Positions 21,927 to 64,000 of a stretch of DNA of 64,000 nucleotides are shown one piece after another (within the stretch, counting starts at the first letter, position 1; the number at the start of each line of letters is the position of its first letter). The notes under the pieces are model-generated. The model ran no database searches. It saw only the letters and a list, made by a program, of their open reading frames with translations, and was not told the DNA's origin. Origin of the DNA: Eledone cirrhosa (taxonomy: Eukaryota). The position numbers were made by a program, and so were the translations under genes. The stretch spans positions 19,282,001-19,346,000 of the forward strand of contig OZ024764.1 in the NCBI GenBank assembly GCA_964016885.1. The letters are read 5' to 3'.

Positions 21927-23042
21927 CTAAACTTCTGTATGAATACGCACATGCTTGGTTAAGTTACTACGGGGAGAGAATGATTTACCACAGATGTCAC
22001 AGTGATATGGCTTCTCTCCTGTATGAGTACGTTTGTGAGTAGTTAGGTTATGACTACAAGTGAATGATTTACCACAGATATCACAGTGATATGGCTTCTC
22101 TCCTGTATGAGTACGTTTGTGGGTAGTTAAGGTATTACCCTGACTGAATGATTTACCACAGATATCACAGTGATGTGGCTTCTCTCCTGTATGAATTTGT
22201 TTGTGAACTCTGACGCTACTACTGTGACTGAATGATTTACCACAGATATCACAGTGATATGGCTTCTCTCCTGTATGAATACGTTTGTGAGTAGTTAGAT
22301 GATTACTCTGAGAGAATGATTTACCACAGATATCACAATGATATGGGTTCTCTCCTGTATGAATACGTTTGTGAGTAGTTAGGTTATTATTTTTAGAGAA
22401 CGTTTTACCACAGATATCACAGTGATATGGGTTCTCTCCTGTATGAATACGTTTGTGAGTAGTTAGGTGATGACTACAAGTGAATGATTTACCACAGATA
22501 TCACAATGATATGGGTTCTCTCCTGTATGAATACGTTTGTGAGTAGTTAGGCTATTATTTTTAGAGAACGTTTTACCACAGATATCACAGTGATATGGTT
22601 TCTCTCCTGTATGAATACGTTTGTGATTAGTTAAGGTATTATTGTGACTGAATGATTTACCACAGATGTCACAGTGATATGGCTTCTCTTCTGTATGAAT
22701 ACGTTTGTGAACTCTGACGCTACTACTGTCACTGAATGATTTATCACAGATATCACATTGATATGGCTTCTCTCCTGTATGAATACGTTGGTGTTTAAGG
22801 AAGCTACTTCTGCCAGGGAATGATTTACTACAGATGTCACAGTGATATGGCTTCTCTCCTGTACCAATACACTTATGAATAGTTAAGGTATAAGTTTGAG
22901 AAAATGATTTACCACAGATATCACAGTGATATGGCAACTCTTCCGTATGATTTAGTTTGTGTCTAGTTAATTTATTATTTTTAGAGAATGATTTACCACA
23001 GATATCACAGTGGAATGGTGATTTTACTATATTTTTCGACAT
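21927..23042 (-). CDS. C2H2 zinc-finger protein, 371 aa, identical to gene 1 (gene 2)
   Basis: Same translation as 6888-8003 at offset 15039. Confidence 0.9.
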   Translation of the reverse strand: MSKNIVKSPFHCDICGKSFSKNNKLTRHKLNHTEELPYHCDICGKSFSQTYTLTIHKCIGTGEKPYHCDICSKSFPGRSSFLKHQRIHTGEKPYQCDICDKSFSDSSSVRVHKRIHTEEKPYHCDICGKSFSHNNTLTNHKRIHTGEKPYHCDICGKTFSKNNSLTTHKRIHTGENPYHCDICGKSFTCSHHLTTHKRIHTGENPYHCDICGKTFSKNNNLTTHKRIHTGENPYHCDICGKSFSQSNHLTTHKRIHTGEKPYHCDICGKSFSHSSSVRVHKQIHTGEKPHHCDICGKSFSQGNTLTTHKRTHTGEKPYHCDICGKSFTCSHNLTTHKRTHTGEKPYHCDICGKSFSPRSNLTKHVRIHTEV

Positions 23043-26000
23043 ATCTCATAAAAGATATCAATCACCTCAGTTTCTCACATAATTCACAGTTTTAATATTT
23101 TTCTCCTCTCAATATATGGATAGTTTTCTTCTTTATGTTTATAATATTATTCTTAAAACATATTCGTCCAGATATATTTTTATCAACTTTGGTCTTTCTT
23201 TATATTTAAAGATGATACAAACTGTTTTGTAGATCTCTTCAAGTTTAATATACATATAAAATCATCTTGTACATATTCCAGACAGTGAAGAATCTAATTT
23301 TTCTGGTTTTTATTTGATTAGTTATTCCTGTAATAATGGAAATATTTCTACTCCTGTAGTTCCATCAACTATCATCTTTGTCAATATATGAAGATCTTAC
23401 AAAATCATGTGTAAATTTCTTCAGCTTTATTTTGTATCTTCTACATATTCCAGACAGCAAAGAATAGAAGTGTTATTGAGTTTACAAGAAATATTTCCCA
23501 GTATTTCTCCCATAGATTTATATAAACAAGGTTGTGTCTGTTCTGTATAACAGCTTCCTTTAGTCTTTAAATAATGGTGTTGATGAAACAACTGATATAA
23601 AAGTGTTTTATCCTTTTCATACCAGTCTTTATATTTATCTAAAAACTTTCCATTATAACTTCATGAAATTGTACAAAGTTATGTTCCAAATAGCAGCTTA
23701 ATACTGAGAAATTTAGTTATATTACTAAATCCCTTGAAAGTGTTGAGTGTTTTCAAAATTATTTGAAAATGATGGGTAGTGTCTTTCATTAGAAATGATT
23801 AATATTGAGGATATGTCTGATGTAACGTGCTCTTTAATGCCAATGTCCTCTGGTATTCTGAAATAATAAAAGAACATTATAAGATTCTCAGAAACTTGTA
23901 ATACATCAGTACAAATTTCATATAATATTTCTATATTGATAAATGGACTGTAATAAATACTAAGGCCTTCTTTGGTGAAGAATGTGCTGACTAACATAGG
24001 TTATTTATTAGTGGCAGTAGATTATACTGACTGATAAAAGTAGTTATTAGTGGCATTAGATTATACTGACTGATAAAAGTAGTTATTAGTGACATTAGAT
24101 TATACTGACTGATAAAAGTAGTTATTAGTGACATTAGATTATACTGACTGATAAAAGTAGTTATTAGTGACATTAGATTATACTGACTGATAAAAGTAGT
24201 TATTAGTGATATCAGATTAACCCTTTAGTATTCACATTACTCTATATTTACTATTATATTTTCACAGTAAATGCTTTATCTCACATAATATCAAATCTAT
24301 GAGATTTTGATGTTACTTATTTTGAGAACAATACCTTAACATAAGTATAAGTGACCAGTTACGGCCAGTTTGAACAGAAAGATGTGGGAGAATTCTGGCC
24401 AGATATGGCCAGTTTATAGAAATTAGGTGTAGAAGAATGGCTTGTGAGAAGCTGTCAGTAAAGTGTGTCTAGTGAGGAATTGAAGGTACAGGTAGGAGTT
24501 CATCATGGTTTAGTTCTTAGCCCACTGTTGTTCATCATAGTTCTCCAAGCCATAACAGAGAGGTTTAAGACTGGCTGTCTATGGAAACTTCTCTATGTAG
24601 ATGACCAGCTATAGATATAGAATTTGAAATGGTAAGTTCTGAGAATATACTTAGCCAAAACTAAAGTGGTAATGGATAGGAGAGAAGACCCTGACCCCTT
24701 CAGGAAAGTGGCCCTGCTCCATATGTAGAAAAGGAATAAGTAGAGATAACCACAATGACAGAGGTCAAAGATCTAGTTATAATAGCAGGGGACTTCAATG
24801 GTCATGTTGGACAGCTCCAGGATGGATACACTGGGGTACATGGTGGTCATGGTTATGGCTCAAGAAATGAAGAAGGAATGAGGCTTCTTGTATTTTGTGA
24901 TGTAAGTGAACTAACCATTTGCAACACTTCAAGAAACCTACCAACCACCTAATAACCTACCAATCAGGTGAGCACATGAGACAGATTTACTTCTTGCTAG
25001 TTAGGGAGTAAGACAGATAGATGGTGTCAAATACTAAGGCATACCCCAGGGAACAATGTAACCCCCCAACATAGGTTAGTCGTTAGTGACATCTCAGTAA
25101 GCAAGAGACAAAGAGAGACATACAAGAAGGTGTGAAAAAGGAAGGTCTAGAAATTAAAAGACCTTTCACTAAAATATAAATTTAGGCGCGCCCTTCAAGA
25201 TGTGTATGATGAAAAAGAAGACGTTTTAGCGTCGTATGACATAGATGACAACTGGAATTTCTTACGTGACAGTAGACCCGACAGAAGGACCAGCTATTGA
25301 GATTGACGACTATAGGGTCCAAGAGGTAATTAAGGAAAGGAAAAATTGAGGTCTGCTGGACTGTTGGGGATAGTTGCTGAGATGCTAAAGGCATCAGGGG
25401 ATGTAGGAAGTAAACTGGTTGCATGCATCATTAATCAAGCTATATATGGTGGTGTCATACCCAAAGACTGGTGCAGCAGTATTCTCATAAATTGAGGTAA
25501 AGGTAAAGGGGATGTTCTGGAGAGGAGTAATTATATGGGCATAAAACTGATGGATCAGGTTATGAAAGTGACAGAAAGAATACTAGCGCAACTTAGAGAA
25601 AGGGTCAAACAGATGCCCTCTTCTTAGTGAGACAACTACTAGAGAGGTTCTTAGAGAAGAATAAACTACTATACTTAGCTTTTGTTCACCTAGAAAAGGC
25701 CTTTGATAGAGTACCCCAATCTGTCATCTGGTGGTCCCTAAGGAAACTAGGTGTAGAGGAATAGTTTGTGAGGACAATGCAAGCTATGTACAGAGGTGGT
25801 GTCAGTAAAGTGAGGGTAGGAATGGAGTTTAATAAGGAATTCCAGATACAAGTAGGAGTACATCAGGGTCGGTCCTCAGCCCGCCCTTGTTCATTATAGA
25901 CCTCCAAGCCATAAAAGAGGAGTTTAAGACTGGCTGCCCATGGGAACTTCTCTAGGCTGACGATGTGGTTCTTATAGCAGAATCAGTAGAGGAGCTAGAG

Positions 26001-31676: not shown

Positions 31677-33705
31677 CAGACATGTCAAACATGCGGCCCT
31701 TTGCAAGGAAAGCTGCGGCGCACACAAAGGTTTTTACAGTGCCACCATGTTTCATTTTCGTAATATAAAATTTAAAAATTATTTCGATACAAATGTTTTT
31801 TTTGTGCAATTTTTGTCAACTATTTTTAATTTCCATTAATCACGTGCAGCTCATTAACAGAAAACTTTCTTTCAAAATTTCAAAAGTTTTTGTTTTTGAA
31901 ATGGTTAGTGCTCCTCCAGCTAAGAGAAAAAGGAAATTGAATGAAGAAGGGCAAGTGTTTCAAGAAAAGTGAGAATTACAGTATTTTTGCTCAATGCTGA
32001 ACAGAAAGATACACTGTTTAATTTGCAACAACTACATCGCCACGCCAAAAGAGTACAATTTAAAAAGACATTATGAAACAAACCCTCGATCTTACGATAA
32101 ATATGAAGCCCCAATGTGTGTTTCAAGACTCAAGGAATTGAAGTCTAACTTGACACAGGAATAGACCTGTTTTATGTTAATTCAGGAAGAGAATGTCACT
32201 TCCGTTACTGCAAGCTATGAACTCAGTCGAATGATTGCCATGAGTGGGAAATCTTACAGTGAAGGAGATTTTGTAAAGCAATGTCTTGTAAAAACAGCTG
32301 AAATTGTCCAGAGAAAGCAGAGTTATTCAAAGACATTTCATTAACCAGGAACACTGTTGCTGAACAGATTAATGAAATGTCAGGTGATCTGAAACAACAG
32401 TTAAAGGCTGTATCATCAAGGTTTGAACATGTTTCTATTGCTATTGATGAGACTGTTGACATCACTGGAATAGTACAGCTTGCATTCTTCATCAGGGCCT
32501 GTGACAGTGAATTTAATATTTATGAAGAACTGATTGAACTGGTCCCCAAACATGACACTATAACAAGCCAGGACATCTTTGAGAAGGTCAAGCAGGGTCT
32601 GCATGGTTTTGATCTGAGTAAACTTGCATGTTTATCTACTGACAGTGCTGCAAATATGGTTGGTAGACATAATGGTGTTGCTGCCAAGTTACAAACAAAA
32701 ATAGAAAACTCATATCTAGATTCATCATTTGCACATTTTCACTGTATTATTCATCAGCAAAATTTATGTTCAAAGATTTTAAAATTGCATCATGTGCTTA
32801 GCTTGGTCACAAAGACAGTGAACTAAATCAGAGGCCTGCTCTCAACCACCGTCAGTTCAGCCAGTTGTTGGAAGATATGGATAATCAGTTCACCGATGTT
32901 CCATTCTACACAGAAGTCTGTTGGTTGACATGTCACAAAGTGCTGAAAAGATTCTATTTGTTGAAATAATTATGTTTTTGGAGATGAAAGGTCAAAACAC
33001 AGATGAAATAAAAGATGAAAGTTGGCTCCAACATCTGGCTTTTGTTGTGGATATTACTGCACAATTAACTGATCTTAATTTGAAATTACAAGGTAAAAAC
33101 AAACCCATCACTCAGTTGTATGATGACATCAAGTTCTTCATTAGAAAACTTAGCTTATGGAAGTCTCCGTTGTCAGATGAAAATTTAATTCATTTTCTTA
33201 TGTGCAAAGAGCTGAAAATCACTGCCCATACTGAGTCTGTACTTTGCTTAACAAAAACTTCTCAGAGAACAAGGTTGACAGATCAACACATGTCATTTCT
33301 GATTAAAGTTGGAACTGTACAGACATTTCAGCCAGACATACCAAACATTGTTAACAGAAAGAAGTGTCAAGCCTCAGGACAAAACACTAAAAATGGTTGA
33401 ATGGTAGCAAATAAATGTTCAGTTTTGAACTGTTGTTATTTGTGTACAATGTATTTGTTGCTGTAAACAATCTGCAAGTATATGTTGACATGTTAAATTT
33501 TAGTTTTTTATCAAACTACTTCATTACTTTGTATTCATGAATGCTGCTAAAACATTTGTATGTACATTGTATGTTTCTAAATTTAAGTAACAAATCTTTC
33601 TGCAATATATTTTATTAAATGACTTTAATTAGTTGCAGTGTGCAACCCTCAGACAACACATGTGACCTATGTGGACCTTGGGGAACCCTCAGTTTTTTAT
33701 GCCTC
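31677..33705 (+). mobile_element. hAT transposon fossil, longest copy (~2.0 kb), with stops and frameshifts
   Basis: TIRs, ACCTACAT TSD, extra C-terminal transposase segment (WLQHLAFVVDITAQLTDLNLKLQGK; RTRLTDQH). Confidence 0.9.
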
Positions 33706-38487: not shown

Positions 38488-39684
38488 CTAAACTTCTGTA
38501 TGAATACGCACATGCTTGAAGTTACCTCTGAGAGAGAATGATTTACCACAGATGTCACAGTGATATGGCTTCTCTCCTGTATGAGTACGTTTGTGGGTAG
38601 CTAAGCTACTTCTGTTAGCGAATGATTTACCACAGATGTCACAATGATATGGCTTCTCCACTGTATGAATACAATTGTGAGTAGTTAAGGTACTACTGCG
38701 ACTGAATGATTTACCACAGATGTCACAATGATATGGCTTCTCCCCTGTATGAATACATTTGTGAGTAGTTAAGGTTCTACTGCGACTGAATGATTTACCA
38801 CAGATGTCACAGTGATATGTCTTCTCTCCTGTATGAATACGTTTGTGACTAGTTAGGCCACTACTCTGAGAGAAGGATTTATCACAGATGTCACAGTGGT
38901 ATGGCCTCTCTCCTGTATGAATACGTTTGTAAGTAGTTAAGGTATTTCTGAGACTGAATGATTTACCACAGATGTCACAGTGATGTGGCTTCTCTCCTGT
39001 ATGAATTTGCTTGTGAACTCTGATGCTACTACCGTAACTAAATGATTTACCACAGATATCACAGTGATATGGCTTCTCTCCTGTATGAATACGTTTGTGA
39101 GTAGTTAGGTTATTATTTTTAGAGAACGTTTTACCACAGATATCACAGTGATATGGTCTCTCTCCTGTATGAATACGTTTGTGAGTAGTTAGGTGATTAC
39201 TCTGAGAGAATGTTTTACCACAGATATCACAGTGATATGGTTTCTCTCCTGTATGAATATGTTTGTGAAGAGTTAAGCTAATACTGTGACTGAATGATTT
39301 GTTACAGATATCACACTTATAAGGCTCCTCTCCTGTATGAATACGTTTGTGAGTAGTTAGGTGATTACTCTGAGAGAATGAATTACCGCAGATGTCACAG
39401 TGATATGGCTTCTCTCCTGTATGAATACGTTGGTGTTTAGTTAAGCTATATCTGCAAGAGAATGATTTACTACAGATGTCACAGTGATGTGGCTTCTCTC
39501 CTGTATGAATATGTTTGTGAACTCTGACGCTACTACTGTGACTGAATGATTTGTTACAGATATCACACTTATAAGGCTTCTCTCCTGTATGAATACGTTT
39601 GTGACTAGTTAGGTGATTACTACAAGAGAATGATTTACCACAGATATCACAGTGGAATGGTGATTTTACTATATTTTTCGACAT
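38488..39684 (-). CDS. C2H2 zinc-finger protein, 398 aa, 14 fingers (one H->Y finger; 1-codon deletion in last finger) (gene 3)
   Basis: Same leader and HVRIHTEV C-terminus as gene 1, different recognition helices. Confidence 0.92.
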   Translation of the reverse strand: MSKNIVKSPFHCDICGKSFSCSNHLTSHKRIHTGEKPYKCDICNKSFSHSSSVRVHKHIHTGEKPHHCDICSKSFSCRYSLTKHQRIHTGEKPYHCDICGNSFSQSNHLTTHKRIHTGEEPYKCDICNKSFSHSISLTLHKHIHTGEKPYHCDICGKTFSQSNHLTTHKRIHTGERPYHCDICGKTFSKNNNLTTHKRIHTGEKPYHCDICGKSFSYGSSIRVHKQIHTGEKPHHCDICGKSFSLRNTLTTYKRIHTGERPYHCDICDKSFSQSSGLTSHKRIHTGEKTYHCDICGKSFSRSRTLTTHKCIHTGEKPYHCDICGKSFSRSSTLTTHNCIHTVEKPYHCDICGKSFANRSSLATHKRTHTGEKPYHCDICGKSFSLRGNFKHVRIHTEV

Positions 39685-40644
39685 AACTCCTACTAAAAGA
39701 TATCAATGACCTCAGTTTCTCACATAATTCACAGTTTTAATATTTTTCTCCTCTTAATATATGGATATTTTTCTTCTTTATGTTTATAATATTATTCCTA
39801 AAACATATTCCTCCAGATATATTTACATCAACTTGGTCTTTCTTTATATTTAAAGATGATACAAACTGTTTTGTAGATCTCTTCAAGTTTAATATACATA
39901 TAAAATCATCCTGTACATATTCCAGACAATGAAGAATCTAATTTTTCTGGTCTTCATTTGATTAGTTATTCCTGTAATAATGGAAATATTTCTACTCCTG
40001 TAGTTCCATCAACTATCATCTTTGTCAATATATGAAGATCTTACAAAATCATGTGAAAATTTCTTCAGCTTTATTTTGTATCTTCTACATATTCCAGACA
40101 GCAAAGAATAGAAGTGTTATTGAGTTTACAAGAAATATTTCACAGTATTTCTCCCCTAGATTTATATAAACAAGGTTGTATCTGTTCTGTATAACAGCTT
40201 CCTTTAATCTTTAAATAATAGTGTTGATGAAACAACTGATATAAAAGTGTTTTATCCTTTTCATACCAGTCTTTATATTTATCTAAAAACTTTCCATTGT
40301 AACTTCATGAAATTGTGCTAAGTTATGTTCCAAATAGCAGCTTAATACTGAGAAATTTAGTTATATTACTAAATCCCTTCAAAGTGTTGAGTGTTTTCAA
40401 AATTATTTGAAAATGATGGGTAGTGTCTTTCATTAGAAATGGTTAATATTGAGGATATGTCTGATGTAACGTGCTCTTTAATGCCAATGTCCTCTGGTAT
40501 TCTGAAATAATGAAAGAACATTATAAGATACTCAGAAACTTGTAATACATCAGTACAAATTTCATATAATATTTCTATATTGGTAAATCGACTGTAATAA
40601 ATACTAAGGCCTTCTTTGGTGAAGAATGTGCTGCCTAACATAGG

Positions 40645-41987
40645 TTAGTTATTAGTGGCAGTAGATTATACTGACTGATAAAAGTAGTTATTAGTGACAT
40701 TAGATTAAACTGACTGATAAAAGTAGTTATTAGTGGCAGTAGATTAAACTGACTGATAAAAGTAGTTATTAGTGACATTAGATTAAACTGACTGATAAAA
40801 GTAGTTATTAGTGATATTAGATTATACTGACAGATAAAAGTAGTTATTAGTGACATTAGATTATACTGACTGATAAAAGTAGTTAATAGTGACATTAGAT
40901 TATACTGACTGATAAAAGTAGTTAATAGTGACATTAGATTAAACTGACTGATAAAAGTAGTTATTAGTGACATTAGATTAAACTGACTGATAAAAGTAGT
41001 TATTAGTGACATTAGATTATACTGACTGATAAAAGTAGTTATTAGTGACTTTAGATTATACTGACTGATAAAAGTAGTTATTAGTGACATTAGATTATAC
41101 TGACTGATAAAAGTAGTTAATAGTGACATTAGATTATACTGACTGATAAAAGTAGTTAGTAGTGATATTAGATTAAACTGACTGATAAAAGTTATTAGTG
41201 GCATTAGATTATACTGACTGATAAAAGTAGTTATTAGTGACATTAGATTAAACTGACTGATAAAAGTAGTTAGTAGTGACATTAGATTAAACTGATTGAT
41301 AAAAGTAGTTATTAGTGACTTTAGATTATACTGACTGATAAAAGTAGTTATTAGTGGCAGTAGATTAAATTGACTGATAAAAGTAGTTATTAGTGACATT
41401 AGATTATACTGACTGATAAAAGTAGTTATTAGTGACATTAGATTATACTGACTGATAAAAGTAGTTAGTAGTGACATTAGATTAAACTGATTGATAAAAG
41501 TAGTTATTAGTGACTTTAGATTATACTGACTGATAAAAGTAGTTATTAGTGGCAGTAGATTAAATTGACTGATAAAAGTAGTTATTAGTGGCAGTAGATT
41601 AAACTGACTGATAAAAGTAGTTATTAGTGACATTAGATTATACTGACTGATAAAAGTAGTTAGTAGTGACATTAGATTATACTGACTGATAAAAGTAGTT
41701 ATTAGTGACATTAGATTATACTGACTGATAAAAGTTATTAGTGACATTAGATTAAACTGACTGATAAAAGTAGTTATTAGTGACATTAGATTATACTGAC
41801 TGATAAAAGTAGTTAATAGTGACATTAGATTAAACTGACTGATAAAAGTTATTAGTGGCATTAGATTATACTGACTGATAAAAGTAGTTATTAGTGACAT
41901 TAGATTAAACTGACTGATAAAAGTAGTTATTAGTGACTTTAGATTATACTGACTGATAAAAGTAGTTATTAGTGACATTAGATTAAC
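40645..41987. repeat. 39-bp minisatellite, ~34 units (about 5 units at 8962-9180 and 24001-24219)
   Basis: Unit TTATTAGTGACATTAGATTATACTGACTGATAAAAGTAG with occasional 36-bp variants. Confidence 0.95.
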
Positions 41988-43376
41988 CCTTTAGTATTCA
42001 CATTACTCTATATTTACTATTATATTTTCACAGTAAATGCTTTATCTCACATAATATCAAATCTATGAGATTTTCATGTTATTTATTTTGAGAACAATAC
42101 CTTAACATAAGTATAAGTGACCAGTTACGGCCAGTTGAACAGAAAGACATGAGACAATTCTGGCCAGATATGGCCAGTTTATATACTAAAGGGTTAAAGA
42201 AATTAGGTGTAGAAGAATGGCTTGTGAGAAGCTGTCAGTAAAGTGTGTCTAGTGAGGAATTGAAGGTACAGGTAGGAGTTCATCATGGTTTAGTTCTTAG
42301 CCCACTGTTGTTCATCATAGTTCTCCAAGCCATAACAGAGAGGTTTAAGACTGGCTGTCTATGGAAACTTCTCTATGTAGATGACCAACTATAGATATAG
42401 AATTTGAAATGGTAAGTTCTGAGAATATACTTAGCCAAAACTAAAGTGGTAATGGATAGGAGAGAAGACCTTCAGGAAAGTGGCCCTGCTCCATATGTAG
42501 AAAAGGAATAAGTAGAGATAACCACAATGACAGAGACCTAGTTATAATAGCAGGGGACTTCAATGGTCATGTTGGACAGCTCCAGGATGGATACACTGGG
42601 GTACATGGTGGTTATGGTTATGGCTCAAGAAACGATGAAGGAGTGAGGCTTCTTGTATTTTGTGATGCAAGTGAACTAACCATTTGCAACACTTCAAGAA
42701 ACCTACCAACCACCTAATAACCTACCAATCAGGTGAGCACATGAGACAGATTGACTTCTTGCTAGTTAGGCAGTAAGAGAGATAGATGGTGTCAAATACT
42801 AAGGCATACCCCAGGGAACAAAGTAGCAGGAAACGACTAGATTTGTAGATAAAGAAGTGGGAGACAGGATTATCGGAGTTTAGAAGAGCTACACACTTCT
42901 CCAGTTGGCTGGGAAATAATTATCTTTCCTTAATTTTATTGCTCGACCTCTTAGATGTTTGCAATCGACTTTTCTTCCTGAAAACGGAAACCCTAATCCT
43001 AATACTGGGAAATAAAACGTCTATTGCAAGTATCTAAGGGATCCAGAGAAAAAATACTGGAAAAGGAGTATAGCAAGAATTCTAAGAAAAATAATTATTC
43101 ATACCCAACGTGAGGTGTGAGTAGATCTGTGAAACTACATCTCTTTGTATACTTTCACCCTACTTTTTCTACAAATCTAGTCGTTTCCGTGAGGGTACCT
43201 GGTTATTTCAGCACCGTAGCCTCACCTTACTGAGGTGTCAGGTGATACCCGTGAGGGTACCTGGTTATTTCAGCACCTTAGCCTCACCATCACCCGTTGT
43301 AATGCTGCCAGTGTGTTGGCTTGCCTCAAAGTGTGTAGTTAACCCCTAGGGTGTGAGGTGTGGCCTATTATCACAC

Positions 43377-46300
43377 TATAAATTCAATTTATTCACGTTT
43401 ATAATAACATATATAATGACACAATGCTTAGAGGAAAGTCATAGAATCACTTATATCAACACAAGTGGATAAGTTCCTTCAGACTGAAAATATAAACAGA
43501 GCATATAAATAAATTTACAGTAGAATAACATAACAAATATGTTTTAAATATATAAATAACATTGCAAATGCCTCGGTAACACTATAAAGGATGATACAAT
43601 GAAAGATAAATTCCTTCAATGTTGCAATATTAAAGAAAATGTAAAGGAAGGGGTGGACAACGGAGCCAACACCAGAGCAAAAGACAGCAACGAGGGGTAC
43701 TGGGAAACCGCTCTAATGAGTTTTGAGGCAAGCCAGCACACTGGCAGTGTTACCTCGGGTGATGGCGAGGCTGAGGTGCTGAAACAGCCAAACGCCCTCG
43801 CGATTTCGCCAGTTACCTCTATAAGGCGAGCCGCCAGTGAGGAAAGGAACCTCGCAGTCAGTGACCCGACTCCCCCAAACGTCTCGAAAGCCACAGGCCA
43901 AAAAATGTAGCTGGTCGACAGATCAGAGTATTTGAGGGTCTTACTCCGCTCGGCTGCCGAAGCTGTGGCTCTCGTCCTTACCGCAGCATCAAGGATATGG
44001 GAAAGAGCAAAGGAGTCACTAACAGTGACGTCCCAGATTAAGCACCTGCCTCTCGACCAGGGGCACAGGGTAAGGCTGTCAGGTCTTTTGCCGTCACTTC
44101 TGGACAACCCAGATGGTTCCAAGACTGAGGGGATGTTTGCCCGGGCCAAAGCTCTCTTCAGAATAAAGTTTAGCTCCGTGTGACGGGTGAAGTGGTCGGC
44201 ATTCAGGCGGCAAGAAAGACCGTGGAGGCCTGTGGAGTGGAGGAGTTAGCCACATCTCAAACCCATGCAGACGTCAGCTCCCAGTCTGAGGGTGATGGAG
44301 ACACAAAGTTCATCCAGGCTGAGTAGGCCTCCAACGTTGGCCACGGGTAAGGCATCGACCCAGTCACCGGAGTATTTGGCGCTGGCAGATGGTAAGCGGC
44401 ACCTTGTAAACTGATCTGAGAGGACAAAGAGGGAGTCGAAGGTGGCATTCCAACGTATCCTGTCCCAAGTTCTCTGACTTCGACTGTCCTCCACCTTCTC
44501 AGGAAGAGACAAGCCCAACTCACTCCATTGCTGGAGAGCTTCACACAACTCCCTGTTGGAACTAGTCCATGTTGGAGAGGAGAGGATGCTGCAAGCTTGG
44601 GTGGAGGAAAGGAAGCAGGGGAGAGAGAGGGACGAACACTTACTAACATTGACCAGACACTCGAGTCTCTCGAAGATTAGGTCGTCGAAGCGTTGGAGGC
44701 AGGATGGAAATCTGTGAGAGGGGCTGACTCTGAGCAGATACAGAAGCTTAGGAATAGACAGGTAGTTCCTGAGTAAGAAGAAACCTTGATGGGGTTCGAT
44801 ATCTTCAATATTCCTCAGCAGCTGCTCAAGGCCAACCATCTTCGATTGGATGGTTGACTCGAAGGCCAGGTCTGTGATTGGGGCTCCTAAGGAGCACCAA
44901 GCCGACGGGGGAGGGACCGTGATGCAAGGGAAGGACTCTGCGAACAGGTCGATCAGCTGTTGGTGTTAAGAAGCCGGGTGGTTGAGGATCCAGAGCTCAC
45001 ATTTGGAGCTATTGATCTGGAGACCCCGGCGCCAAGCTCCTCCACCATCCTGTTGGCAGTGGCGAGAACCATATCCGGAGTTCCCCCCACCAGGCGTCGT
45101 CGAGCTACCAGACATTGAGGTCCAACTCAGCCCCCATCATGGTGACGTCATCAATGTCCAGTGCGGGGAGGGGGGGTGTCCCCGAGTGGGTCACCCTGTT
45201 GAACTCCTGAGGCAGAGGTGATGATCTGGTCACTGAAAGAGAGGTAGGAGGGCTCCCGATAAGCCTGCCAAGCAAAGTGGTAGAGTTGTGGGACCCTCTC
45301 TCTTACTGAGCCGAGGACGATGTTACGGCTGACGGAGTTGAAGGCATTCCTGAGGTCAAGTTTGAGGATGACCTTGGGGGATGAGGAGGGCAAGTTGGCA
45401 AATGCTCTGGCCGCGTGGACAGCAGCCACACATCCCAACCTGGTACCCACCCACAGCTGGATGGGGGAAAATTCCTCCGCCAGTGGGTTGGAGACCAACA
45501 GCAATCACGCCTTTGCAGTGAGGCGGCGAGGTGTGCAGCCAACCGCAATGCGGCGCAGGTCCCCGTTGGGCTTGGTGAGACCAAATAGCTTCGCACCGAA
45601 GAACAGTGGGCGGATGAACGGGAGAAGGTTCACCGATTCACAAACTGAGTCAGACTCTCCAAGAGCTCGAGTCCGGCATCACCGGCCGATAAGGAGATAC
45701 CATCCTTGAGATGTTGAGGATGAAGGACGTCAATTCCCGCGCCTGACCCAGCGGGGAAGGATGAAATCGCCTTTCTGATGATATTGGTGGTGTAAACCAG
45801 TCCCAAGTATTCTGGTGGTTCGGGCCAGTGTTGCTGATCATCTGGGGGTGCTTCTCTTTCAGACGCTCACGAGAGTCAGAGTTGCATGGAGCAAGGGAGG
45901 ACAGCCTCTTTAATGTCAAATTCGGTGAGTTTGGCATTGACGGCTCGCTTGAGGTCTACCGGTTGTCTGTTGGTGGACACCGAGCTCGGAGACGAACTGA
46001 GATGAGACGTGGTTGGGGTGGACTCAAACAGCTGGGACTGCCGCTTGAGAGAGGACTTGAGGGAACCCGAGTTCGCATTGTGCACGTGAAGAGAGATGAG
46101 GGGAAACAAAAACAATTTCTGCCAGACTATTGTTGGACGAGCAAACGTTTTTCAGTAAATTAGAGAGGGCACCTGCAAAGCTGTTCCGAGCTCCCTTAAG
46201 GGTCCGGTTAACGAGCTTTGATTTGGAGAAGCCCTGGGAGGGGCTGTGGCAAAGTCGTCGGTAGAGTGTTGGTCATCCCCACGGAATAGTCGGAGCTGAA

Positions 46301-46960
46301 GTGGCACCGATGACAGGTCCAGTGTTGAAGCCTTTCGGCTTGAGCTTTGGTGATGCTGACACAGCTTCTGTGGTAGCTTGCGTGGCATAGGTGACATTTA
46401 ATTGTCTTTAAGTACTGGTTAGTGCGGGCACAGAGGGCGCAATCAGGTGGCAGGCTGGCAACAGCCGGCAGTAGAGGGCCAGCGTTGGAATTCGGTGAAG
46501 GGAGTGAGTCAGTAAAGGAGACAGCAGTGGTTCTAGAGTGGACTAGGTTAAAGTGGTGACAACTTTAGCAATCGGCAATCGCCGGTGATAGTTCGGTCGA
46601 AACATCGGGCCACCGGCGGGTTGAACGAATACCTAGGTGGGCTGTGCGCGAGGAGGAAGTAAGGGTTGAGCAAGGGGAGGGATGGAAGGTGGAGAAGGAG
46701 TGAGAAGATGATGAGTGCGTAGAGAGGAGTGTGGTCATGTGAGAGGCAGATAAATACAGTGGGAGAGAAAGAGCACTGAACATGCAAAGAGAAGGAAAAT
46801 AAAAACGCTAGAAATACAAAATCTAAGGCTGTGAGTTTGTGTAATAGTTCGCATGGGTAAATCCGCAGTAAAAACCGAAATTGTGAGTTTGTGTAAAAAA
46901 GAAAAAAAAAAAAACATGGGCAAGACTTAAGTAAAATCAAAACCTGAATGATAGTGATAC
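43377..46960 (-). mobile_element. CRE-clade non-LTR retrotransposon (PHD finger + RT + restriction-like endonuclease), frameshifted; 5' end uncertain
   Basis: RT motifs LKLDLRNAFNSVSR and GVQQGDPLG; RLE motifs RHTELN..LEPSGLSRSDGKRPD..IWDVTV..PVAFETFG..LFQHLSLAITRGN; stop at 43713. Confidence 0.85.
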
Positions 46961-47868
46961 AAGATGTTTACAATTACGGAGTGATTACATTACTGGACCT
47001 GAATTCTATCAAGTGGTCAAAGCTTCTAATTCTGTGAAATAGAATGGAAGTATGGATTGACCTTTCAGTCACACCTGACTATAAATAGATTCAGGTTATT
47101 TCAAGAGGGAGATGGGATGGTTCCTCGCCATTTATAATTATTTATATTTTATATTTGGGGGGTTTGATTTTGAAAAATTGTAAGTGTATATTAAGGAGGA
47201 AAGTATAATTGTGTGATACAATTGCTCCAGGTTGGTTCCCTACGTTGTTGCCACAAACAATTCTTTTTTCCTCCGAACATCTGTTATTCCTCTCCGTAGA
47301 TTATAAATGGTAAAATCCGTTCGATCCAACCGAATGGAAAATCCAGTTCCTTGAAGAATATTTTGAGTTGTCTCGGACAAAGCAAAAAAAGGGGAAAGTT
47401 GAAAATCTTTACCTCGTTTCGTGGTGTATTGCCATCTCCCACTGTGTTTTTCTTTCCTTTATCATTATTGTTCAATAAATTATATTATTATACACAGTTT
47501 AGACAATATATTTGTAATGTCTTTCTCAAGGAATTGCCAGCAATTTATAATGTTATTTACACACGTTATTTATGTATATATTTAAAACATATTTACAACG
47601 TTATTCTACTGTAAATTTATATAATTGTAATAAAATATATTAATTATATCATCACATAATATAAAAACGACCTTTAGAATATTTAAATATTTAGTTTTGT
47701 TAATTTATTTTTCAGCAACAACAAAAGTTTTCACTTTAATTAATTAGAGGTAGGTAAAATATAGATAATTACGATAACATTTTATATTTCCAGTAATGAA
47801 ACAAACAAGAAAATATATATTTGTGATGTGAAAAGTGAGCTTAAATCTACAATATTAATAGACATAAT

Positions 47869-55100: not shown

Positions 55101-56543
55101 TTATGTATGAATACGCACATGCTTGGTTAAGATACCACTTCGAGAGAATAATTTACCACAGATGTCACAGTGATAAGGCTTCTCTCCTGTATGAATACGT
55201 TTGTGAGTAGTTAGGTGATGACTACAAGTGAATGATTTACCACAGATATCACAGTGATATGGTCTCTCTCCTGTATGAATACGTTTGTGGATAGTTAATT
55301 GATCACTTCGAGAGACCGATTTATCACAGATATCACAGTGATATGGTCTCTCTCCTGTATGAGTACGTTTGTGAGTAGTTAGGTGACTACTATAAGAGAA
55401 TGATTTACCACAGATATCACAGTGATATGGTCTCTCTCCTGTATGAATACGTTTGTGGATAGTTAATTGATCACTTCGAGAGAAGGATTTACCACAGATA
55501 TCACAGTGATATGGTTTCTCTCCTGTATGAGTACGTTTGTGAGTAGTTAGGTGACTACTATAAGAGAATGATTTACCACAGATATCACAGTGATATGGTT
55601 TCTTCCCTGTATGAATATGTTGGTGTTTAGTTAAGGTAGTACTATGAAAGAATGATTTATCACAGATATCACAGTGATATAGCTTCTCTCCTGAATGTCT
55701 TTCTTTGTGTCTTGTTAACTTTGTATTTTTAGAGAATGATTTACCACAGACATCACAATAATATGGTGTTTCTCTTGCAGGAATATGTTTGTAAATTGTT
55801 AAGGTACTCACATGAGAGAAATATTTACCACAAATATCATTGTGATATGGTTTCTCTTCTGTGTGACTTAGTTTGTCTCTAACAAAGTTATTACTTTCAG
55901 AAAATGGTTTACCCAAGATATAGTTACATGGCTTCTCTCCTGTGTGACTACGTTTGTGTCTAGTCAATTTATTACTTTTAGAAAATGATTTACCACAGAT
56001 ATCACAGTCATATGGCTTCTCTTCTGTGTGACTTAGTTTATGTCTAGTTAATTTAGTATTGTTAGAGAACGATTTACCACAGATATCAAAGTCATATGGC
56101 TTCTCTTCTGTGTGACTTAGTTTATGTCTGGTTAATTTAGTATTTTTAGAGAATGATTTACCACAGATATCACAGTCATATGGCTTCTCTTCTGTATGAC
56201 TTAGTTTATGTCTAGTTAATTTAGTATTGTTAGAGAATGATTTACCACAGATATCACAGTCATATGGCTTCTCTTCTGTATGACTTAGTTTATGTCTAGT
56301 TAATTTAGTATTGTTAGAGAATGATTTACCACAGATATCACAGTCATATGGCTTCTCTTCTGTATGACTTAGTTTATGTCTGGTTAATTTAGTATTTTTA
56401 GAGAATGATTTACCACAGATATCACAGTCATATGGCTTCTCTTCTGTATGACTTAGTTTATGTCTGGTTAATTTAGTATTGTTAGAGAATGATTTACCAC
56501 AGATATCACAGTGGAATGGTGATTTTACTATATTTTTCGACAT
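55101..56543 (-). CDS. C2H2 zinc-finger protein, 480 aa, 17 finger units (3 degenerate), N-terminal run of near-identical fingers (gene 4)
   Basis: Same leader; GAA->TAA ends the protein 2 codons earlier than the paralogues. Confidence 0.9.
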   Translation of the reverse strand: MSKNIVKSPFHCDICGKSFSNNTKLTRHKLSHTEEKPYDCDICGKSFSKNTKLTRHKLSHTEEKPYDCDICGKSFSNNTKLTRHKLSHTEEKPYDCDICGKSFSNNTKLTRHKLSHTEEKPYDCDICGKSFSKNTKLTRHKLSHTEEKPYDFDICGKSFSNNTKLTRHKLSHTEEKPYDCDICGKSFSKSNKLTRHKRSHTGEKPCNYILGKPFSESNNFVRDKLSHTEEKPYHNDICGKYFSHVSTLTIYKHIPARETPYYCDVCGKSFSKNTKLTRHKERHSGEKLYHCDICDKSFFHSTTLTKHQHIHTGKKPYHCDICGKSFSYSSHLTTHKRTHTGEKPYHCDICGKSFSRSDQLTIHKRIHTGERPYHCDICGKSFSYSSHLTTHKRTHTGERPYHCDICDKSVSRSDQLTIHKRIHTGERPYHCDICGKSFTCSHHLTTHKRIHTGEKPYHCDICGKLFSRSGILTKHVRIHT

Positions 56544-57504
56544 AACTCCTACTAAAAGATATCAATGACCTCAGTTTCTCACATAATTCACAGTTTTAAT
56601 ATTTTTCTTCTGTCAATATATGGATATTTTTCTTCTTTATGTTTATAATATTATTCCTAAAACATATTCCTCCAGATTTATTTCTATCAACTTTGGTCTT
56701 TCATTATATTTAAAGATGATACAAACTGTTTTGTAGATATCTTCAAGTTTAATATACATATAAAATCATCTTGTACATATTCCAGACAGTGAAGAATCTA
56801 ATTTTTCTGGTCTTCATTTGATTAGTTATTCCTGTAATAATGGAAATATTTCTACTCCTGTAGTTCCATCAACTATCATCTTTGTCAATATATGAAGATC
56901 TTACAAAATCATGTGAAAATTTCTTCAGCTTTATTTTGTATCATCTACATATTCCAGACAGCGAAGAATAGAAGTGTTATTGAGTTTACAAGAAATATTT
57001 CACAGTATTTCTCCCCTAGATTTATATAAACAAGGTTATATCTGTTCTGTAAAACAGCTCCCTTTAGTCTTTAAATAATGGTGTTGATGAAACAACTGAT
57101 ATAAAAGTGTTTTATCCTTTTCATACCAGTCTTTATATTTATCTAAAAACTTTCCATCATAAGTTCATGAAATTGTGCAAAGTTATGTTCCAAATAGCAG
57201 CTTAATACTGAGAAATTTAGTTATATTACTAAATCACTTCAAAGTGTTGAGTGTTTTCAAAATTATTTGAAAATGATGGGTAGTGTCTTTCATTAGAAAT
57301 GGTTAATGTTGAGGATATGTCTGATGTAACGTGCTCTTTAATGCCAATGTCCTCTGGTATTCTGAAATAATAAAAGAAAATTATAAGATACTCAGAAGCT
57401 TGTAATACATCAGTACAAATTTCATATAATATTTCTATATTGGTAAATGGACTGTAATAAATACTAAGGCCTTCTTTGGTGAAGAATGTGCTGCCTAACA
57501 TAGG

Positions 57505-58306
57505 TTAGTTATTAGTGGCAGTAGATTATACTGACTGATAAAAGTAGTTATTAGTGACATTAGATTAAACTGACTGATAAAAGTAGTTATTAGTGGCAGT
57601 AGATTAAACTGACTGATAAAAGTAGTTATTAGTGACATTAGATTAAACTGACTGATAAAAGTAGTTATTAGTGACATTAGATTAAACTGACAGATAAAAG
57701 TAGTTATTAGTGACATTAGATTAAACTGACTGATAAAAGTAGTTATTAGTGACATTAGATTAAACTGACTGATAAAAGTAGTTATTAGTGACATTAGATT
57801 AAACTGACTGATAAAAGTAGTTATTAGTGACATTAGATTATACTGACTGATAAAAGTAGTTATTAGTGACATTAGATTAAACTGACTGATAAAAGTAGTT
57901 ATTAGTGACTTTAGATTATACTGACTGATAAAAGTAGTTATTAGTGACATTAGATTATACTGACTGATAAAAGTAGTTATTAGTGACATTAGATCATACT
58001 AACTGATAAAAGTAGTTATTAGTGACATTAGATTATACTGACTGATAAAAGTAGTTATTAGTGACATTAGATTAAACTGACTGATAAAAGTAGTTATTAG
58101 TGACATTAGATTATACTGACTGATAAAAGTAGTTAATAGTGACATTAGATTAAACTGACTGATAAAAGTTATTAGTGGCATTAGATTATACTGACTGATA
58201 AAAGTAGTTATTAGTGACATTAGATTATACTAACTGATAAAAGTAGTTATTAGTGACTTTAGATTATACTGACTGATAAAAGTAGTTATTAGTGATATCA
58301 GATTAA
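57505..58306. repeat. 39-bp minisatellite, ~20 units
   Basis: Same unit as 40645-41987. Confidence 0.95.
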
Positions 58307-59695
58307 CCCTTTAGTATTCACATTACTCTATATTTACTATTATATTTTCACAGTAAATGCTTTATCTCACATAATATCAAATCTATGAGATTTTCATGTT
58401 ATTTATTTTGAGAACAATACCTTAACATAAGTATAAGTGACCAGTTACGGCCAGTTGAACAGAAAGACATGAGACAATTCTGGCCAGATATGGCCGTTTA
58501 TATACTAAAGGGTTAAAGAAATTAGGTGTAGAAGAATGGCTTGTGAGAAGCTGTCAGTAAAGTGTGTCTAGTGAGGAATTGAAGGTACAGGTAGGAGTTC
58601 ATCATGGTTTAGTTCTTAGCCCACTGTTGTTCATCATAGTTCTCCAAGCCATAACAGAGAGGTTTAAGACTGGCTGTCTATGGAAACTTCTCTATGTAGA
58701 TGACCAGCTATAGATATAGAATTTTAAATGGTAAGTTCTGAGAATATACTTAGCCAAAACTAAAGTGCTAATGGATAGGAGAGAAGACCTTCAGGAAAGT
58801 GGCCCTGCTCCATATGTAGAAAAGGAATAAGTAGAGATAACCACAATGACAGAGACCTAGTTATAATAGCAGGGGACTTCAATGGTCATGTTGGACAGCT
58901 CCAGGATGGATACACTGGGGTACATGGTGGTTATGGTTATGGCTCAAGAAACGATGAAGGAGTGAGGCTTCTTGTATTTTGTGATGCAAGTGAACTAACC
59001 ATTTGCAACACTTCAAGAAACCTACCAACCACCTAATAACCTACCAATCAGGTGAACACATGAGACAGATTGACTTCTTGCTAGTTAGGCAGTAAGAGAG
59101 ATAGATGGTGTCAAATACTAAGGCATACCCCAGGGAACAAAGTAGCAGGAAACGACTAGATTTGTAGATAAAGAAGTGGGAGACAGGATTATCGGAGTTT
59201 AGAAGAGCTACACACTTCTCCAGTTGGCTGGGAAATAATTATCTTTCCTTAATTTTATTGCTCGACCTCTTAGATGTTTGCAATCGACTTTTCTTCCTGA
59301 AAACGGAAACCCTAATCCTAATACTGGGAAATAAAACGTCTATTGCAAGTATCTAAGGGGTCCAGAGAAAAAATACTGGAAAAGGGGTATAGCAAGAATT
59401 CTAAGAAAAATAATTATTCCCACCCAACGTGAGGTGTGAGTAGATCTGTGAAACTACATCTCTTTGTATACTTTCACCCTACTTTTTCTACAAATCTAGT
59501 CGTTTCCGTGAGGGTACCTGGTTATTTCAGCACCGTAGCCTCACCTTACTGAGGTGTCAGGTGATACCCGTGAGGGTACCTGGTTATTTCAGCACCTTAG
59601 CCTCACCATCACCCGTTGTAATGCTGCCAGTGTGTTGGCTTGCCTCAAAGTGTGTAGTTAACCCCTAGGGTGTGAGGTGTGGCCTATTATCACAC

Positions 59696-62600
59696 TATAA
59701 ATTCAATTTATTCACGTTTATAATAACATATATAATGACACAATGCTTAGAGGAAAGTCATAGAATCACTTATATCAACACAAGTGGATAAGTTCCTTCA
59801 GAATGAAAATATAAACAGAGCATATAAATAAATTTACAGTAGAATAACATAACAAATATGTTTTAAATATATAAATAACATTGCAAATGCCTCGGTAACA
59901 CTATAAAGGATGATACAATGAAAGATAAATTCCTTCAATGTTGCAATATTAAAGAAAATGTAAAGGAAGGGGTGGACAACGGAGCCAACACCAGAACAAA
60001 AGACAGCAACGAGGGGTACTGGGAAAACGCTCTAATGAGTTTTGAGGCAAGCCAGCACACTGGCAGTGTTACATCGGGTGATGGCGAGGCTGAGGTGCTG
60101 GAACAGCCAAACGCCCTCGCGATTTCGACAGTTACCTCTATAAGGCGAGCCGCCAGTGAGGAAAGGAACCTCGCAGTCAGTGGCCCGACTCCCCCAAACG
60201 TCTCGAAAGCCACAGGCTGAAAAATGTAGCTGGCCGACAGATCAGAGTATTTGAGGGTCTTACTCCGCTCGGCTGCCGAAGCTGTGGCTCTCGTCCTTAC
60301 CGCAGCATCAAGGATGTGGGAAAGAGCAAAGGAGTGACTAACAGTGACGTCCCAGATTAAGCACCTGCCTCTCGACCAGGGGCACAGGGTAAGGCCGTCA
60401 GGTCTTTTGCCGTCACTTCTGGACAACCCAGATGGTTCCAAGACTGAGGGGATGTTTGCCCGGGCCAAAGCTCCCTTCAGAATAAAGTTTAGCTCCGTGT
60501 GACGGGTGAAGTGGTCGGCAAGAAAGACCGTGGAGGCCTGTGGAGTGGAGGAGTTAGCCACATCTCAAACACATGCAGACGTCAGCTCCCACTCTGAGGG
60601 TGATGGAGACACGAAGTTCATCCAGGCTGAGTAGGCCTCCAACGTTGGCCACGGGTAAGGCATCGACCCAGTCACCGGACTATTTGGCGCTGGCAGATGG
60701 TAAGCGGCACCTTGTAAACTGATCTGAGAGGATGAAGAGGGAGTCGAAGGTGGCATTCCAACGTATCCTGTCCCAAGTTCTCTGACTTCGACTGTCCTCC
60801 ACCTTCTCAGGAAGAGACAAGCCCAACTCACTCCATTGCTGGAGAGCTTCACACAACTCCCTGTTGGAACTAGTCCATGTTGGAGAGGAGAGGATGCTGC
60901 AAGCTTGGGTGGAGGAAAGGAAGCAGGGGAGAGAGAGGGACGAACACTTACTAACATTGACCAGACACTCGAGTCTCTCGAAGATTAGGTCGTCGAAGCG
61001 TTGGAGGCAGGATGGAAATCTGTGAGAGGGGCTGACTCTGAGCAGATACAGAAGCTTAGGAATAGACAGGTAGTTCCTGAGTAAGAAGAAACCTTGATGG
61101 GGTTCGATATCTTCAATATTCCTCAGCAGCTGCTCAAGGCCAACCATCTTCGATTGGATGGTTGACTCGAAGGCCAGGTCTGTGATTGGGGCTCCTAAGG
61201 AGCACCAAGCCGACGGGGGAGGGACCGTGATGGAAGGGAAGGACTCTGCGAACAGGTCGATCAGCTGTTGGTGTTAAGAAGCCGTGTGGTTGAGGATCCA
61301 GAGCTCACATTTGGAACTATTGATCTGGAGACCCCGGCGCCAAGCTCCTCCACCATCCTGTTGGCAGTGGCGAGAACCATATCCGGAGTTCCCCCCACCA
61401 GGCGTCGTCGAGCTACCAGACATTGAGGTCCAACTCAGCCCCCATCTTGGTGACGTCATCAATGTCCAGTGCGGGGGGGGGGGTCCCGAGTGGGTCACCC
61501 TGTTGAACTCCTGAGGCAGAGGTGATGATCTGGTCACTGAAAGAGAGGTAGGAGGGCTCCCGATAAGCCTGCCAAGCAAAGTGGTAGAGTTGTGGGACCC
61601 TCTCTCTTACTGAGCCGAGGACGATGTTACGGCTGACGGAGTTGAAGGCATTCCTGAGGTCAAGTTTGAGGATGACCTTGGGGGATGAGGAGGGCAAGTT
61701 GGCAAATGCTCTGGCAGCGTGGACAGCAGCCACACATCCCAACCTGGTACCCACCCACAGCTGGATGGGGGAAAATTCCTCCGCCAGTGGGTTGGAGACC
61801 AACAGCAATCACGCCTTTGCAGTGAGGCGGCGAGGTGTGCAGCCAACCGCAATGCGGCGCAGGTCCCCGTTGGGCTTGGTGAGACCAAATAGCTTCGCAC
61901 CGAAGAACAGTGGGCGGATGAACGGGAGAACGTTCACTGATTCACAAACTGAGTCAGACTCTCCAAGAGCTCGAGTCCGGCATCACCGGCCGATAAGGAG
62001 ATACCATCCTTGAGATGTTGAGGATGAAGGACGTCAATTCCCGCGCCTGACCCAGCGGGGAAGGATGAAATCGCCTTTCTGATGATATTGGTGGTGTAAA
62101 CCGGTCTCAAGTATTCTGGTGGTTCGGGCCAGTGTTGCTGATCATCTGGGGGTGCTTCTCTTTCAGACGCTCACGAGAGTCAGAGTTGCATGGAGCAAGG
62201 GAGGACAGCCTCTTTAATGTCAAATTCGGTGAGTTTGGCATTGACGGCTCGCTTGAGGTCTACCGGTTGTCTGTTGGTGGACACCGACCTCGGAGACGAA
62301 CTGAGATGAGACGTGGTTGGGGTGGACTCAAACAGCTGGAACTGCCGCTTGAGAGAGGACTTGAGGGAACCCGAGTTCGCATTGTGCACGTGAAGAGAGA
62401 TGAGGGGAAACAAAAACAATTTCTGCCAGTCTATTGTTGGACGAGCAAACGTTTTTCAGTAAATTAGAGAGGGCACCTGCAAAGCTGTTCCGAGCTCCCT
62501 TAAGGGTCCGGTTAACGAGCTTTGATTTGGAGAAGCCCTGGGGGGGGCTGTGGCAAAGTCGTCGGTAGAGTGTTGGTCATCCCCACGGAATAGTCGGAGC

Positions 62601-63520
62601 TGAAGTGGCACCGATGACAGGTCCAATGTTGAAGCCTTTCGGCTTGAGCTTTGGTGATGCCGACACAGCTTCTGTGGTAGCTTGCGTGGCATAGGTGACA
62701 TTTAATTGTCTTTAAGTACTGGTTAGTGCGGGCACAGAGGGCGCAATCAGGTGGCGGGCTGGCAACAGCCGGCAGTAGAGGGCCAGCGTTGGAATTCGGT
62801 GAAGGGAGTGAGTCAGTAAAGGAGACAGCAGTGGTTCTAACGGTGGGACTAAAGCGGAGGTTGGGTGGTGAGCTAACAGTTGTAGGGGTGGTGTGGTTGG
62901 CCGGGTTGGATTCGTTCGGAATCTGCCGTGAAGGAGAGGAGGGATAGGTGGGGGCAAGTTAGCTCCTCTCGTGCGTGCTGCAGTTGGTGGAGAATGAGAG
63001 GTCGGAGGCTGACCGTTTGTCACATTAGTCGTTCCACCAAGCAGGTCTCTTGGTCGTTCAACGCATGCCACCGCCACCTAGAGTGGACTAGGTTAAAGTG
63101 GTGGCAACTTTAGCAATCGGCAATCGCCGGTGATAGTTCGGTCGAAACATCGGGCCACCGGCGGGTTGAACGAATACCTAGGTGGGCTGTGCGCGAGGAG
63201 GAAGTAAGGGTTGAGCAAGGGGAGGGATGGAAGGTGTTGAAGGAGAGAGAAGATGATGAGTGCGTGGAGAGGAGTGTGGTCATGTGAGAGGCAGGTAAAT
63301 ACAGTGGGAGAGAAAGAGCACTGAACATGGAAAGAGAAGGAAAATAAAAACGCTAGAAATACAAAATCTAAGGCTGTGAGTTTGTGTAATAGTTCGCATG
63401 GGTAAATCCGCAGTAAAAACCGAAATTGTGAGTTTGTGTAAAAAAGAAAAAAAAAAAAAAACATGGGCAAGACTTAAGTAAAATCAAAACCTGAATGATA
63501 GTGATACAAGATGTTTACAA
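59696..63520 (-). mobile_element. CRE-clade non-LTR retrotransposon, paralogous copy (retains ~240 bp missing from the 43 kb copy)
   Basis: Same motifs, same flanks and apparently shared frameshifts as 43377-46960. Confidence 0.85.
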
Positions 63521-64000
63521 TTACGGAGTGATTATATTACTGGACCTGAATTCTATCAAGTGGTCAAAGCTTCTAATTCTGTGAAATAGAATGGAAGTAT
63601 GGATTGACCTTTCAGTCACACCTGACTATAAATAGATTCAGGTTATTTCAAGAGGGAGATGGGATGGTTCCTCGCCATTTATAATTATTTATATTTTATA
63701 TTTGGGGGGTTTGATTTTGAAAAATTGTAAGTGTATATTAAGGAGGAAAGTATAATTGTGTGATACAATTGCTCCAGGTTGGTTCCCTACGTTGTTGCCA
63801 CAAACAATTCTTTTTTCCTCCGAACATCTGTTATTCCTCTCCGTAGATTATAAATGGTAAAATCCGTTCGATCCAACCGAATGGAAAATCCAGTTCCTTG
63901 AAGAATATTTTGAGTTGTCTCGGACAAAGCAAAAAAAGGGGAAAGTTGAAAATCTTTACCTCGTTTCGTGGTGAATTGCCATCTCCCACTGTATTTTTCT

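Follow-up and report, generated by a model that had tools for sequence, protein, structure and literature searches.

Organization of the locus

The window (the entire 64,000-nt stretch that was analysed) is a tandem array whose units, 15–16 kb long, all contain repeat remnants, a 39-bp minisatellite and a gene for a C2H2 zinc-finger protein. Multi-finger C2H2 ORFs, one per unit, are found on the minus strand at 6888–8006, 21927–23045, 38488–39702 and 55101–56561. Their zinc-finger repeats look cephalopod-like. The minisatellite beside each gene varies in length (8846–9340, 23885–24379, 40529–41990 and 57495–58305) and produces spurious long ORFs. Fragmented plus-strand ORFs at 1627–2676, 17191–17715 and 32302–33400 gave no significant Pfam match but resemble hAT/GTF2I-repeat transposase remnants. 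The 99.5% identity of units 1 and 2 reflects either recent duplication or an assembly collapse issue.

Units 3 and 4 carry a decayed non-LTR retrotransposon with a PHD finger, a reverse transcriptase (RT) and a restriction-like endonuclease (RLE). The whole 4.27-kb insertion occupies 59697–63967 on the minus strand (left edge ±1). Its duplicated copy at 43377–47420, also on the minus strand, has a deletion of about 240 bp upstream of the PHD. The insertion interrupts the 3' end of an older, oppositely oriented relative (59505–59695, plus strand), which resumes at 63968–64000. This target remnant is the 3' UTR of the relative; it lies antisense and is colinear, through the joint, with the 3' end of the inserted element itself. 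The older relative also bears ~63-bp tandem repeats of its RLE end. No target-site duplication was observed, and about 3 target nt are missing.

An empty site is present in units 1 and 2. In unit 1 the older remnant runs uninterrupted from 13673 to 14017 (plus strand) with the joint after 13782, and in unit 2 the joint falls after 28820. The empty joint was also found in contigs of 2/4 sequencing runs. Deletion from units 1 and 2, rather than insertion into units 3 and 4, is disfavoured because the joint does not break the colinearity of the older remnant. Both element copies have the same two junctions and lie within tandem segmental duplications that are ~98% identical. Two separate insertions were therefore rejected, and the two PHD copies are not independent but represent one insertion event, the only one seen in the window, into the 3' UTR of a relative. 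Read depth climbs about 20-fold toward the 3' end of the element, as expected of a multi-copy, 5'-truncating non-LTR family. Depth over the PHD equals left-flank depth, which tandem amplification could explain; hence copy number was not read from depth, and only the 3' gradient and the differing contigs were used. An Rfam scan gave one sub-threshold miRNA match and no ribozyme or rRNA, nor was an rRNA match found in the insertion flanks.

An N-terminal PHD finger in a decayed element

A minus-strand frame at 62608–62745 encodes exactly the 46-aa peptide in which a sequence-only reading of this DNA had recognized a PHD finger, and Pfam, alignment and the predicted fold confirm that recognition. 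The peptide has a Cys4-His-Cys3 pattern with a spacing of 2-11-2-4-2-13 and Trp two residues before the last Cys pair. It scores 34.5 bits against PF00628, for which the cutoff is 24 bits. The second copy at 46304–46441 (minus strand), examined by translation, Pfam and nucleotide comparison, scores 34.0 bits and differs by 1 residue and 2/138 nt. Positions 1–47 of the 47-position profile are spanned. Across all six reading frames of the window, a strict PHD pattern matched only at these two copies, and it never matched in 100 local shuffles. An AlphaFold model of the finger built from 50 aligned sequences (pLDDT 84.6) is predicted to adopt the cross-brace PHD fold and resembles the PHD of BPTF (Foldseek E 1.6e-4; Z 8.9, rmsd 1.8; TM 0.77 with 2f6j).

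The finger follows a 5' region at 62764–63967 whose distal ~670 bp, a candidate 5' UTR, are AT-rich (35% GC vs 55% in the ORF region) and include a T-tract. All parts of the element lie on the minus strand. The conserved core starts with the KGAR segment at 62427–62531, the counterpart of the family's IPKxAR motif. It is followed by an N-terminal extension and the start of the RT (61937–62428, homologous to aa 122–306 of the intact relative P0004), then by the RT core with QQGDPLG and W-x-LDD motifs (61392–61940, P0004 aa 309–487) and by the RT thumb and linker region (60515–61333, P0004 aa 511–804). The RLE, RH..E..KRPD..D after a CCHC knuckle, lies at 60041–60534, and an AT-rich 3' UTR without a visible poly(A) tail completes the element at 59697–60040. 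As had been proposed, the finger stands just upstream of KGAR and the RT. KGAR begins about 36 codons past the finger, though in a different frame.

The finger had also been called intact in both copies. This is true of the finger itself, which passes PF00628 in each, but the remainder of both elements is broken. Each copy is divided into 7 frame segments (at least 6 frameshifts) with additional stops, one of which falls on the Tyr of the RT W-Y-L-D-D motif in both. In the 62.7-kb copy no in-frame Met was found between the last stop and the finger. The element copies in the window are dead.

Intact relatives encode PHD, RT and RLE in one ORF

Intact homologues were used in place of a genome-wide consensus to examine whether PHD, RT and RLE form one ORF. 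Among 20 matches to the RT piece the best is P0004, a protein of 971 aa with PF00628 and PF00078 in a single ORF. P0004, P0024, P0025 and P0026 align over the entire window element, finger included. Intact relatives, 49–53% identical to one another, have the PHD-RT-RLE order in a single ORF, with a finger-to-core spacing of about 36 aa as in the window. The intact relatives are RLE-type non-LTR elements, having a single ORF, RT, a C-terminal CCHC plus PD-(D/E)xK endonuclease and no APE; the window copy is colinear with them but frameshifted. These results uphold the proposal that the N-terminal PHD is integral to an RT-RLE element. The model of P0004 (pLDDT 92) best matches R2 structures (E 1e-22) and predicts a low-confidence linker at residues 64–76 that would tie the finger to the core.

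To place these proteins, 282 were collected, of which 159 near full length entered a tree and 123 were left out. The tree of cores, built without the N-terminus, contains a clade of 62/159 proteins (support 0.996). The same clade has an SH-aLRT of 99 in a 42-row IQ-TREE subset holding 17 of its members. In a short RT tree of 186 columns, from which the clade as a whole is not recovered, the window RT joins P0004, P0024, P0025, P0026 and P0027 (SH-aLRT 95). A PHD is present in 52/62 clade members, and the other 10 predicted proteins begin too late for a whole finger. The finger-to-core distance ranges from 34 to 65 residues (measured in 19/46), a range that includes the ~36 of the window. Named relatives outside the clade come from moths, a tardigrade and a dinoflagellate. 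One protein outside the clade, P0063, has a basic-type finger.

The PHD is out of frame with the RT in the window, and a metagenome RT-motif scan found such a finger in 1/80 related loci (L070, decayed), as might be expected of a separate nested or host fragment or of a functionless vestige. We consider such an origin highly improbable, given that the PHD occurs in the same ORF at similar spacing across the clade although cores are 36–92% identical (median 44%). The 1/80 count suggests rather that the finger marks one lineage and not the whole family. A nested element, the outcome that the sequence-only reading had set against itself, was rejected on the basis of the single ORF of P0004, the full-length alignment of relatives and the clade-wide presence of the PHD.

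PF00628 was precomputed in 28/120 among the matches listed in a search that included the PHD, a fraction biased by the query. ESM Atlas contains PHD+RT clusters of 201 and 97 members. When cellular proteins were searched for a possible source of the basic finger, the 1 candidate was the query's own protein; Atlas matches below 0.9 serve as leads only.

Several relatives have additional domains. Four clade members (P0005, P0046, P0111 and P0141) have a 2A-like GD(V/I)ExNPGP motif ahead of the PHD. An additional domain, a ubiquitin hydrolase (PF00443), is found in the clade members P0046, P0056, P0057, P0090 and P0111, which are 1380–1660 aa long, and P0104 and P0170 bear an OTU protease. P0062 and P0090 have tandem PHDs, a different finger preceding the basic one. 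In L070 (2850–3000, plus strand), a stretch upstream of the finger appears by eye to be a decayed acidic PHD-like sequence.

Reader residues are rare and a basic loop is conserved

The aromatic cage for H3K4me3 is formed by Trp two residues before the His ligand (His−2) plus further aromatic or Met positions. The 4 distinct solved readers that were aligned, BPTF, EBS, AL1 and Cfp1, all have Trp at His−2 and D/E after the third Cys (Cys3). The window finger has Ser at His−2, His after Cys3 and Asp immediately before Cys1. Among clade fingers Trp occupies His−2 in 5/46, some aromatic residue in 13/46, and Trp plus a second cage position in 1/46; an aromatic residue before Cys1 is found in 0/46. 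D/E follows Cys3 in 2/46, and before Cys1 it occurs at Cys1−2 in 4/46 and at any of the three preceding residues in 13/46. The H3K4me3 cage is thus absent from the window finger, as had been noticed, and mostly missing across the clade, as is the acidic signature by which H3-tail readers accommodate H3 R2/K4 (after Cys3 and before Cys1).

Other positions are conserved. The eight zinc ligands are invariant in 49/49 aligned relatives and in the window copy. Asn, Arg and Lys predominate at Cys3−8, Cys3−6 and Cys3−5 (34/47, 37/47 and 44/47, respectively), and Gln follows Cys5 in 40/47. Both −6 and −5 are basic in 38/46 clade fingers, and 40/46 have an 11-residue loop as in piggyBac. The net charge of every clade finger is positive (+1 to +10, mean +5.1). 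The window finger is a basic variant without the R-K pair. Its loop reads N-Q-Y-L-K and its net charge is still +6; among its four closest relatives, Leu is the usual residue at Cys3−6.

Different domains fill the position of the finger in sister lineages

In sister lineages the slot ahead of IPKxAR is filled by C2H2, SAP, RFX, PHD+RFX or OTU+C2H2. By a loose pattern, C2H2 fingers occupy it in 35/159 proteins. The RFX DNA-binding domain is found there alone or behind a canonical PHD in P0164, P0167, P0169, P0172 and P0166. A Cys-rich CxxCxG..CKNCxCVK..C..C module without a Pfam match fills the slot in P0190, P0223, P0228, P0241, P0247 and P0095. Separately placed PHDs of other branches (P0079, P0164, P0167 and P0216) retain the canonical C-D and Trp. 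Because canonical fingers persist in other branches of the family, loss of the reader residues appears to be specific to the basic-PHD clade.

Proposed function of the finger

The sequence-only reading suggested that this family selects insertion sites by reading chromatin. That idea is weakened by the scarcity of cage and acidic residues, the conserved basic motif and the DNA-binding domains in the slot of sister lineages. The better hypothesis is that the finger binds DNA and occupies a targeting slot whose contents can be swapped. We give about an even chance to the proposal that the PHD has been repurposed as a basic DNA-binding anchor rather than a reader of histone methyl marks. The element protein would associate with its own RNA, and its finger, taking the part of ZnF/Myb in R2, would grip the target DNA, whether free or nucleosomal, with a specificity that is probably loose. 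A nick by the RLE and target-primed reverse transcription by the RT would follow.

Domain order in the relatives, the R2-like predicted fold, the flexible tether, the loss of reader residues and the conserved basic loop are consistent with DNA binding. There are also two precedents. The PHD of BAZ1A is without cage and acidic residues, is described as binding DNA and did not bind on histone arrays (PMC5636791). The cross-brace finger of piggyBac contacts DNA via R567/R568/K569, which lie 7, 6 and 5 residues before the third Cys in an 11-residue loop (PMC5861402). Loss of reader residues, the basic loop, the slot and these precedents lead us to favour DNA binding; reading of histones or the acidic patch comes second, followed by a role in RNA binding, protein binding or nuclear localisation. 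Set against this, the window finger does not have the R-K pair, the clade is missing from the short RT tree, and the basic finger of P0063 lies outside it. Moreover, a basic pair alone was insufficient in BAZ1A, whose DNA-binding lysines are C-terminal (PMC5636791).

All of the best structural matches of the modelled finger are histone readers (BPTF, PHF2, AL1 and Cfp1 being nearest), which suggests a different use. The pocket for the H3 N-terminus involves a hydrophobic residue at Cys3−2 and the final Trp of the PHD. Both are retained in clade fingers, and together with the aromatic residue at His−2 in 13/46 they indicate that this pocket may survive. The finger might then read a chromatin protein (the unmodified H3 N-terminus, a non-canonical mark, or the acidic patch via its Arg loop) and bias insertion by chromatin state. 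The basic loop also fits an acidic-patch anchor, copies look dispersed and 5'-truncated from the 3' depth gradient, and the same idea was put forward for the PHDs of CR1/L2 elements (PMC4120745). We regard chromatin reading as possible but doubtful, as the cage is nearly always incomplete, a net positive surface would repel the basic H3 tail, and the canonical-looking fingers of other branches show that the loss is peculiar to this clade.

The basic loop would also fit an NLS, and in piggyBac the RRK residues are also part of the NLS (PMC5861402). The PHD of PHF6 is cited as a binder of DNA or RNA, and the predicted flexible tether would suit a finger whose partner is a host protein or the RNA of the element, or which acts as an NLS, and which takes no part in site choice. 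Such a role seems unlikely to us. Invariant zinc ligands and conserved Asn and Gln exceed the needs of an NLS, and RFX, SAP and C2H2 domains occupy the same slot in other proteins.

DNA binding by the finger also admits a broader scenario, which we advance tentatively and think rather improbable as a whole. A widespread lineage of RLE retrotransposons would have acquired a PHD of the histone-reader type, which then became a DNA-binding head with sequence selectivity and converged on the RRK loop of piggyBac. This head would be one occupant of an exchangeable slot (C2H2, SAP, RFX, canonical PHD or basic PHD) on a compact RT-RLE protein of ~960 aa.

Work is under way to engineer RLE retrotransposons as tools for gene insertion, and their target choice depends on N-terminal domains. 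One slot filled by at least 5 unrelated modules on a conserved core makes site choice by non-R2 RLE elements testable by domain swaps. The family offers dozens of natural PHD variants for learning what a retrotransposon PHD does. The window copy being dead, its value lies in the family to which it leads.

Comparison with known systems

R2 (8gh6, 9nl2, 9nl3 and 9dou) provides the best sequence (E 1e-22) and structure (E 1e-22) matches and has the same RT-linker-RLE layout. Unlike R2, the element has no ZnF-Myb head and is not in 28S rDNA, and identity is ~16%. Pfam scans detected no Myb, and the flanks contain no rRNA.

The element is plausibly a member of the CRE clade (SLACS, CZAR, CRE1/2, Cnl1, MoTeR and FoTeR), as judged by motif and description. 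It shares with CRE a single ORF, RT and a C-terminal CCHC plus RLE, and its RLE motif is near the SLACS/CRE pattern. All residues of the motif C-x1-3-C-x7-8-H-x3-4-C-x9-10-RH..E..(R/K)PD..D/E described in PMC12857005 are present in the same order, with three spacings off by 1–2; the strict pattern matches 0/62. We take the element family to resemble animal Cre families. Among molluscs, CRE types are reported almost solely from cephalopods (PMC10294476). The element differs from CRE in having an N-terminal PHD in place of 1–2 C2H2-like fingers, and its target is the 3' UTR of a relative rather than SL-RNA genes or telomeres. The target-site duplication and poly(A) described for trypanosomatid CRE (PMC12278014) are both absent from this one insertion, at which ~3 nt were lost. 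FoTeRs are likewise without detectable target-site duplications.

CRE and Utopia are described with C2H2-type fingers (PMC12278014, PMC12857005 and PMC4640811). A term search found no mention of a PHD domain in the accessible text of PMC13188248, PMC13708176, PMC4640811 and PMC10294476, and in that of PMC13580325 "PHD" denotes a degree. A figure legend of PMC9977147 includes PHD among the domains of active Chlamydomonas elements; which family carries it is not evident from the legend. We found no publication on a PHD in CRE or other RLE-only elements, in a search of literature outside Repbase, Dfam and supplements, which may hold entries.

That non-LTR elements can carry PHDs, and that these may direct integration, has already been published for CR1, L2 and Crack LINEs (PMC4120745 and PMC3708506). 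As here, the PHD of those elements is N-terminal, sometimes after a 2A-like peptide, but they are APE-type, as are the elements covered by the 2A survey (PMC3708506), whereas the present element is of the RLE type. PHD-guided integration was proposed for CR1/L2 LINEs and described as unstudied as of 2014 (PMC4120745).

The finger itself shares its fold and the CVG(I/L)T..A..(I/L)..(W/Y/F).C..C half with the H3K4me3-reading PHDs of BPTF, Cfp1, AL1, EBS and PHF2/8. Clade fingers differ from these in having a basic loop and in mostly lacking the cage Trp and the acidic residue after Cys3. With the PHD of BAZ1A the likeness is a cross-brace finger with a putative basic DNA-binding surface; BAZ1A uses C-terminal lysines, and the relation would be one of analogy, not homology. 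The piggyBac finger has a C5HC2 ligand order and binds transposon ends, whereas the order here is C4HC3. The parallel, positional only, is between two cross-brace fingers with a basic, possibly DNA-binding surface, in which the RRK of piggyBac and the basic loop of the clade fingers lie at the same offsets before Cys3.
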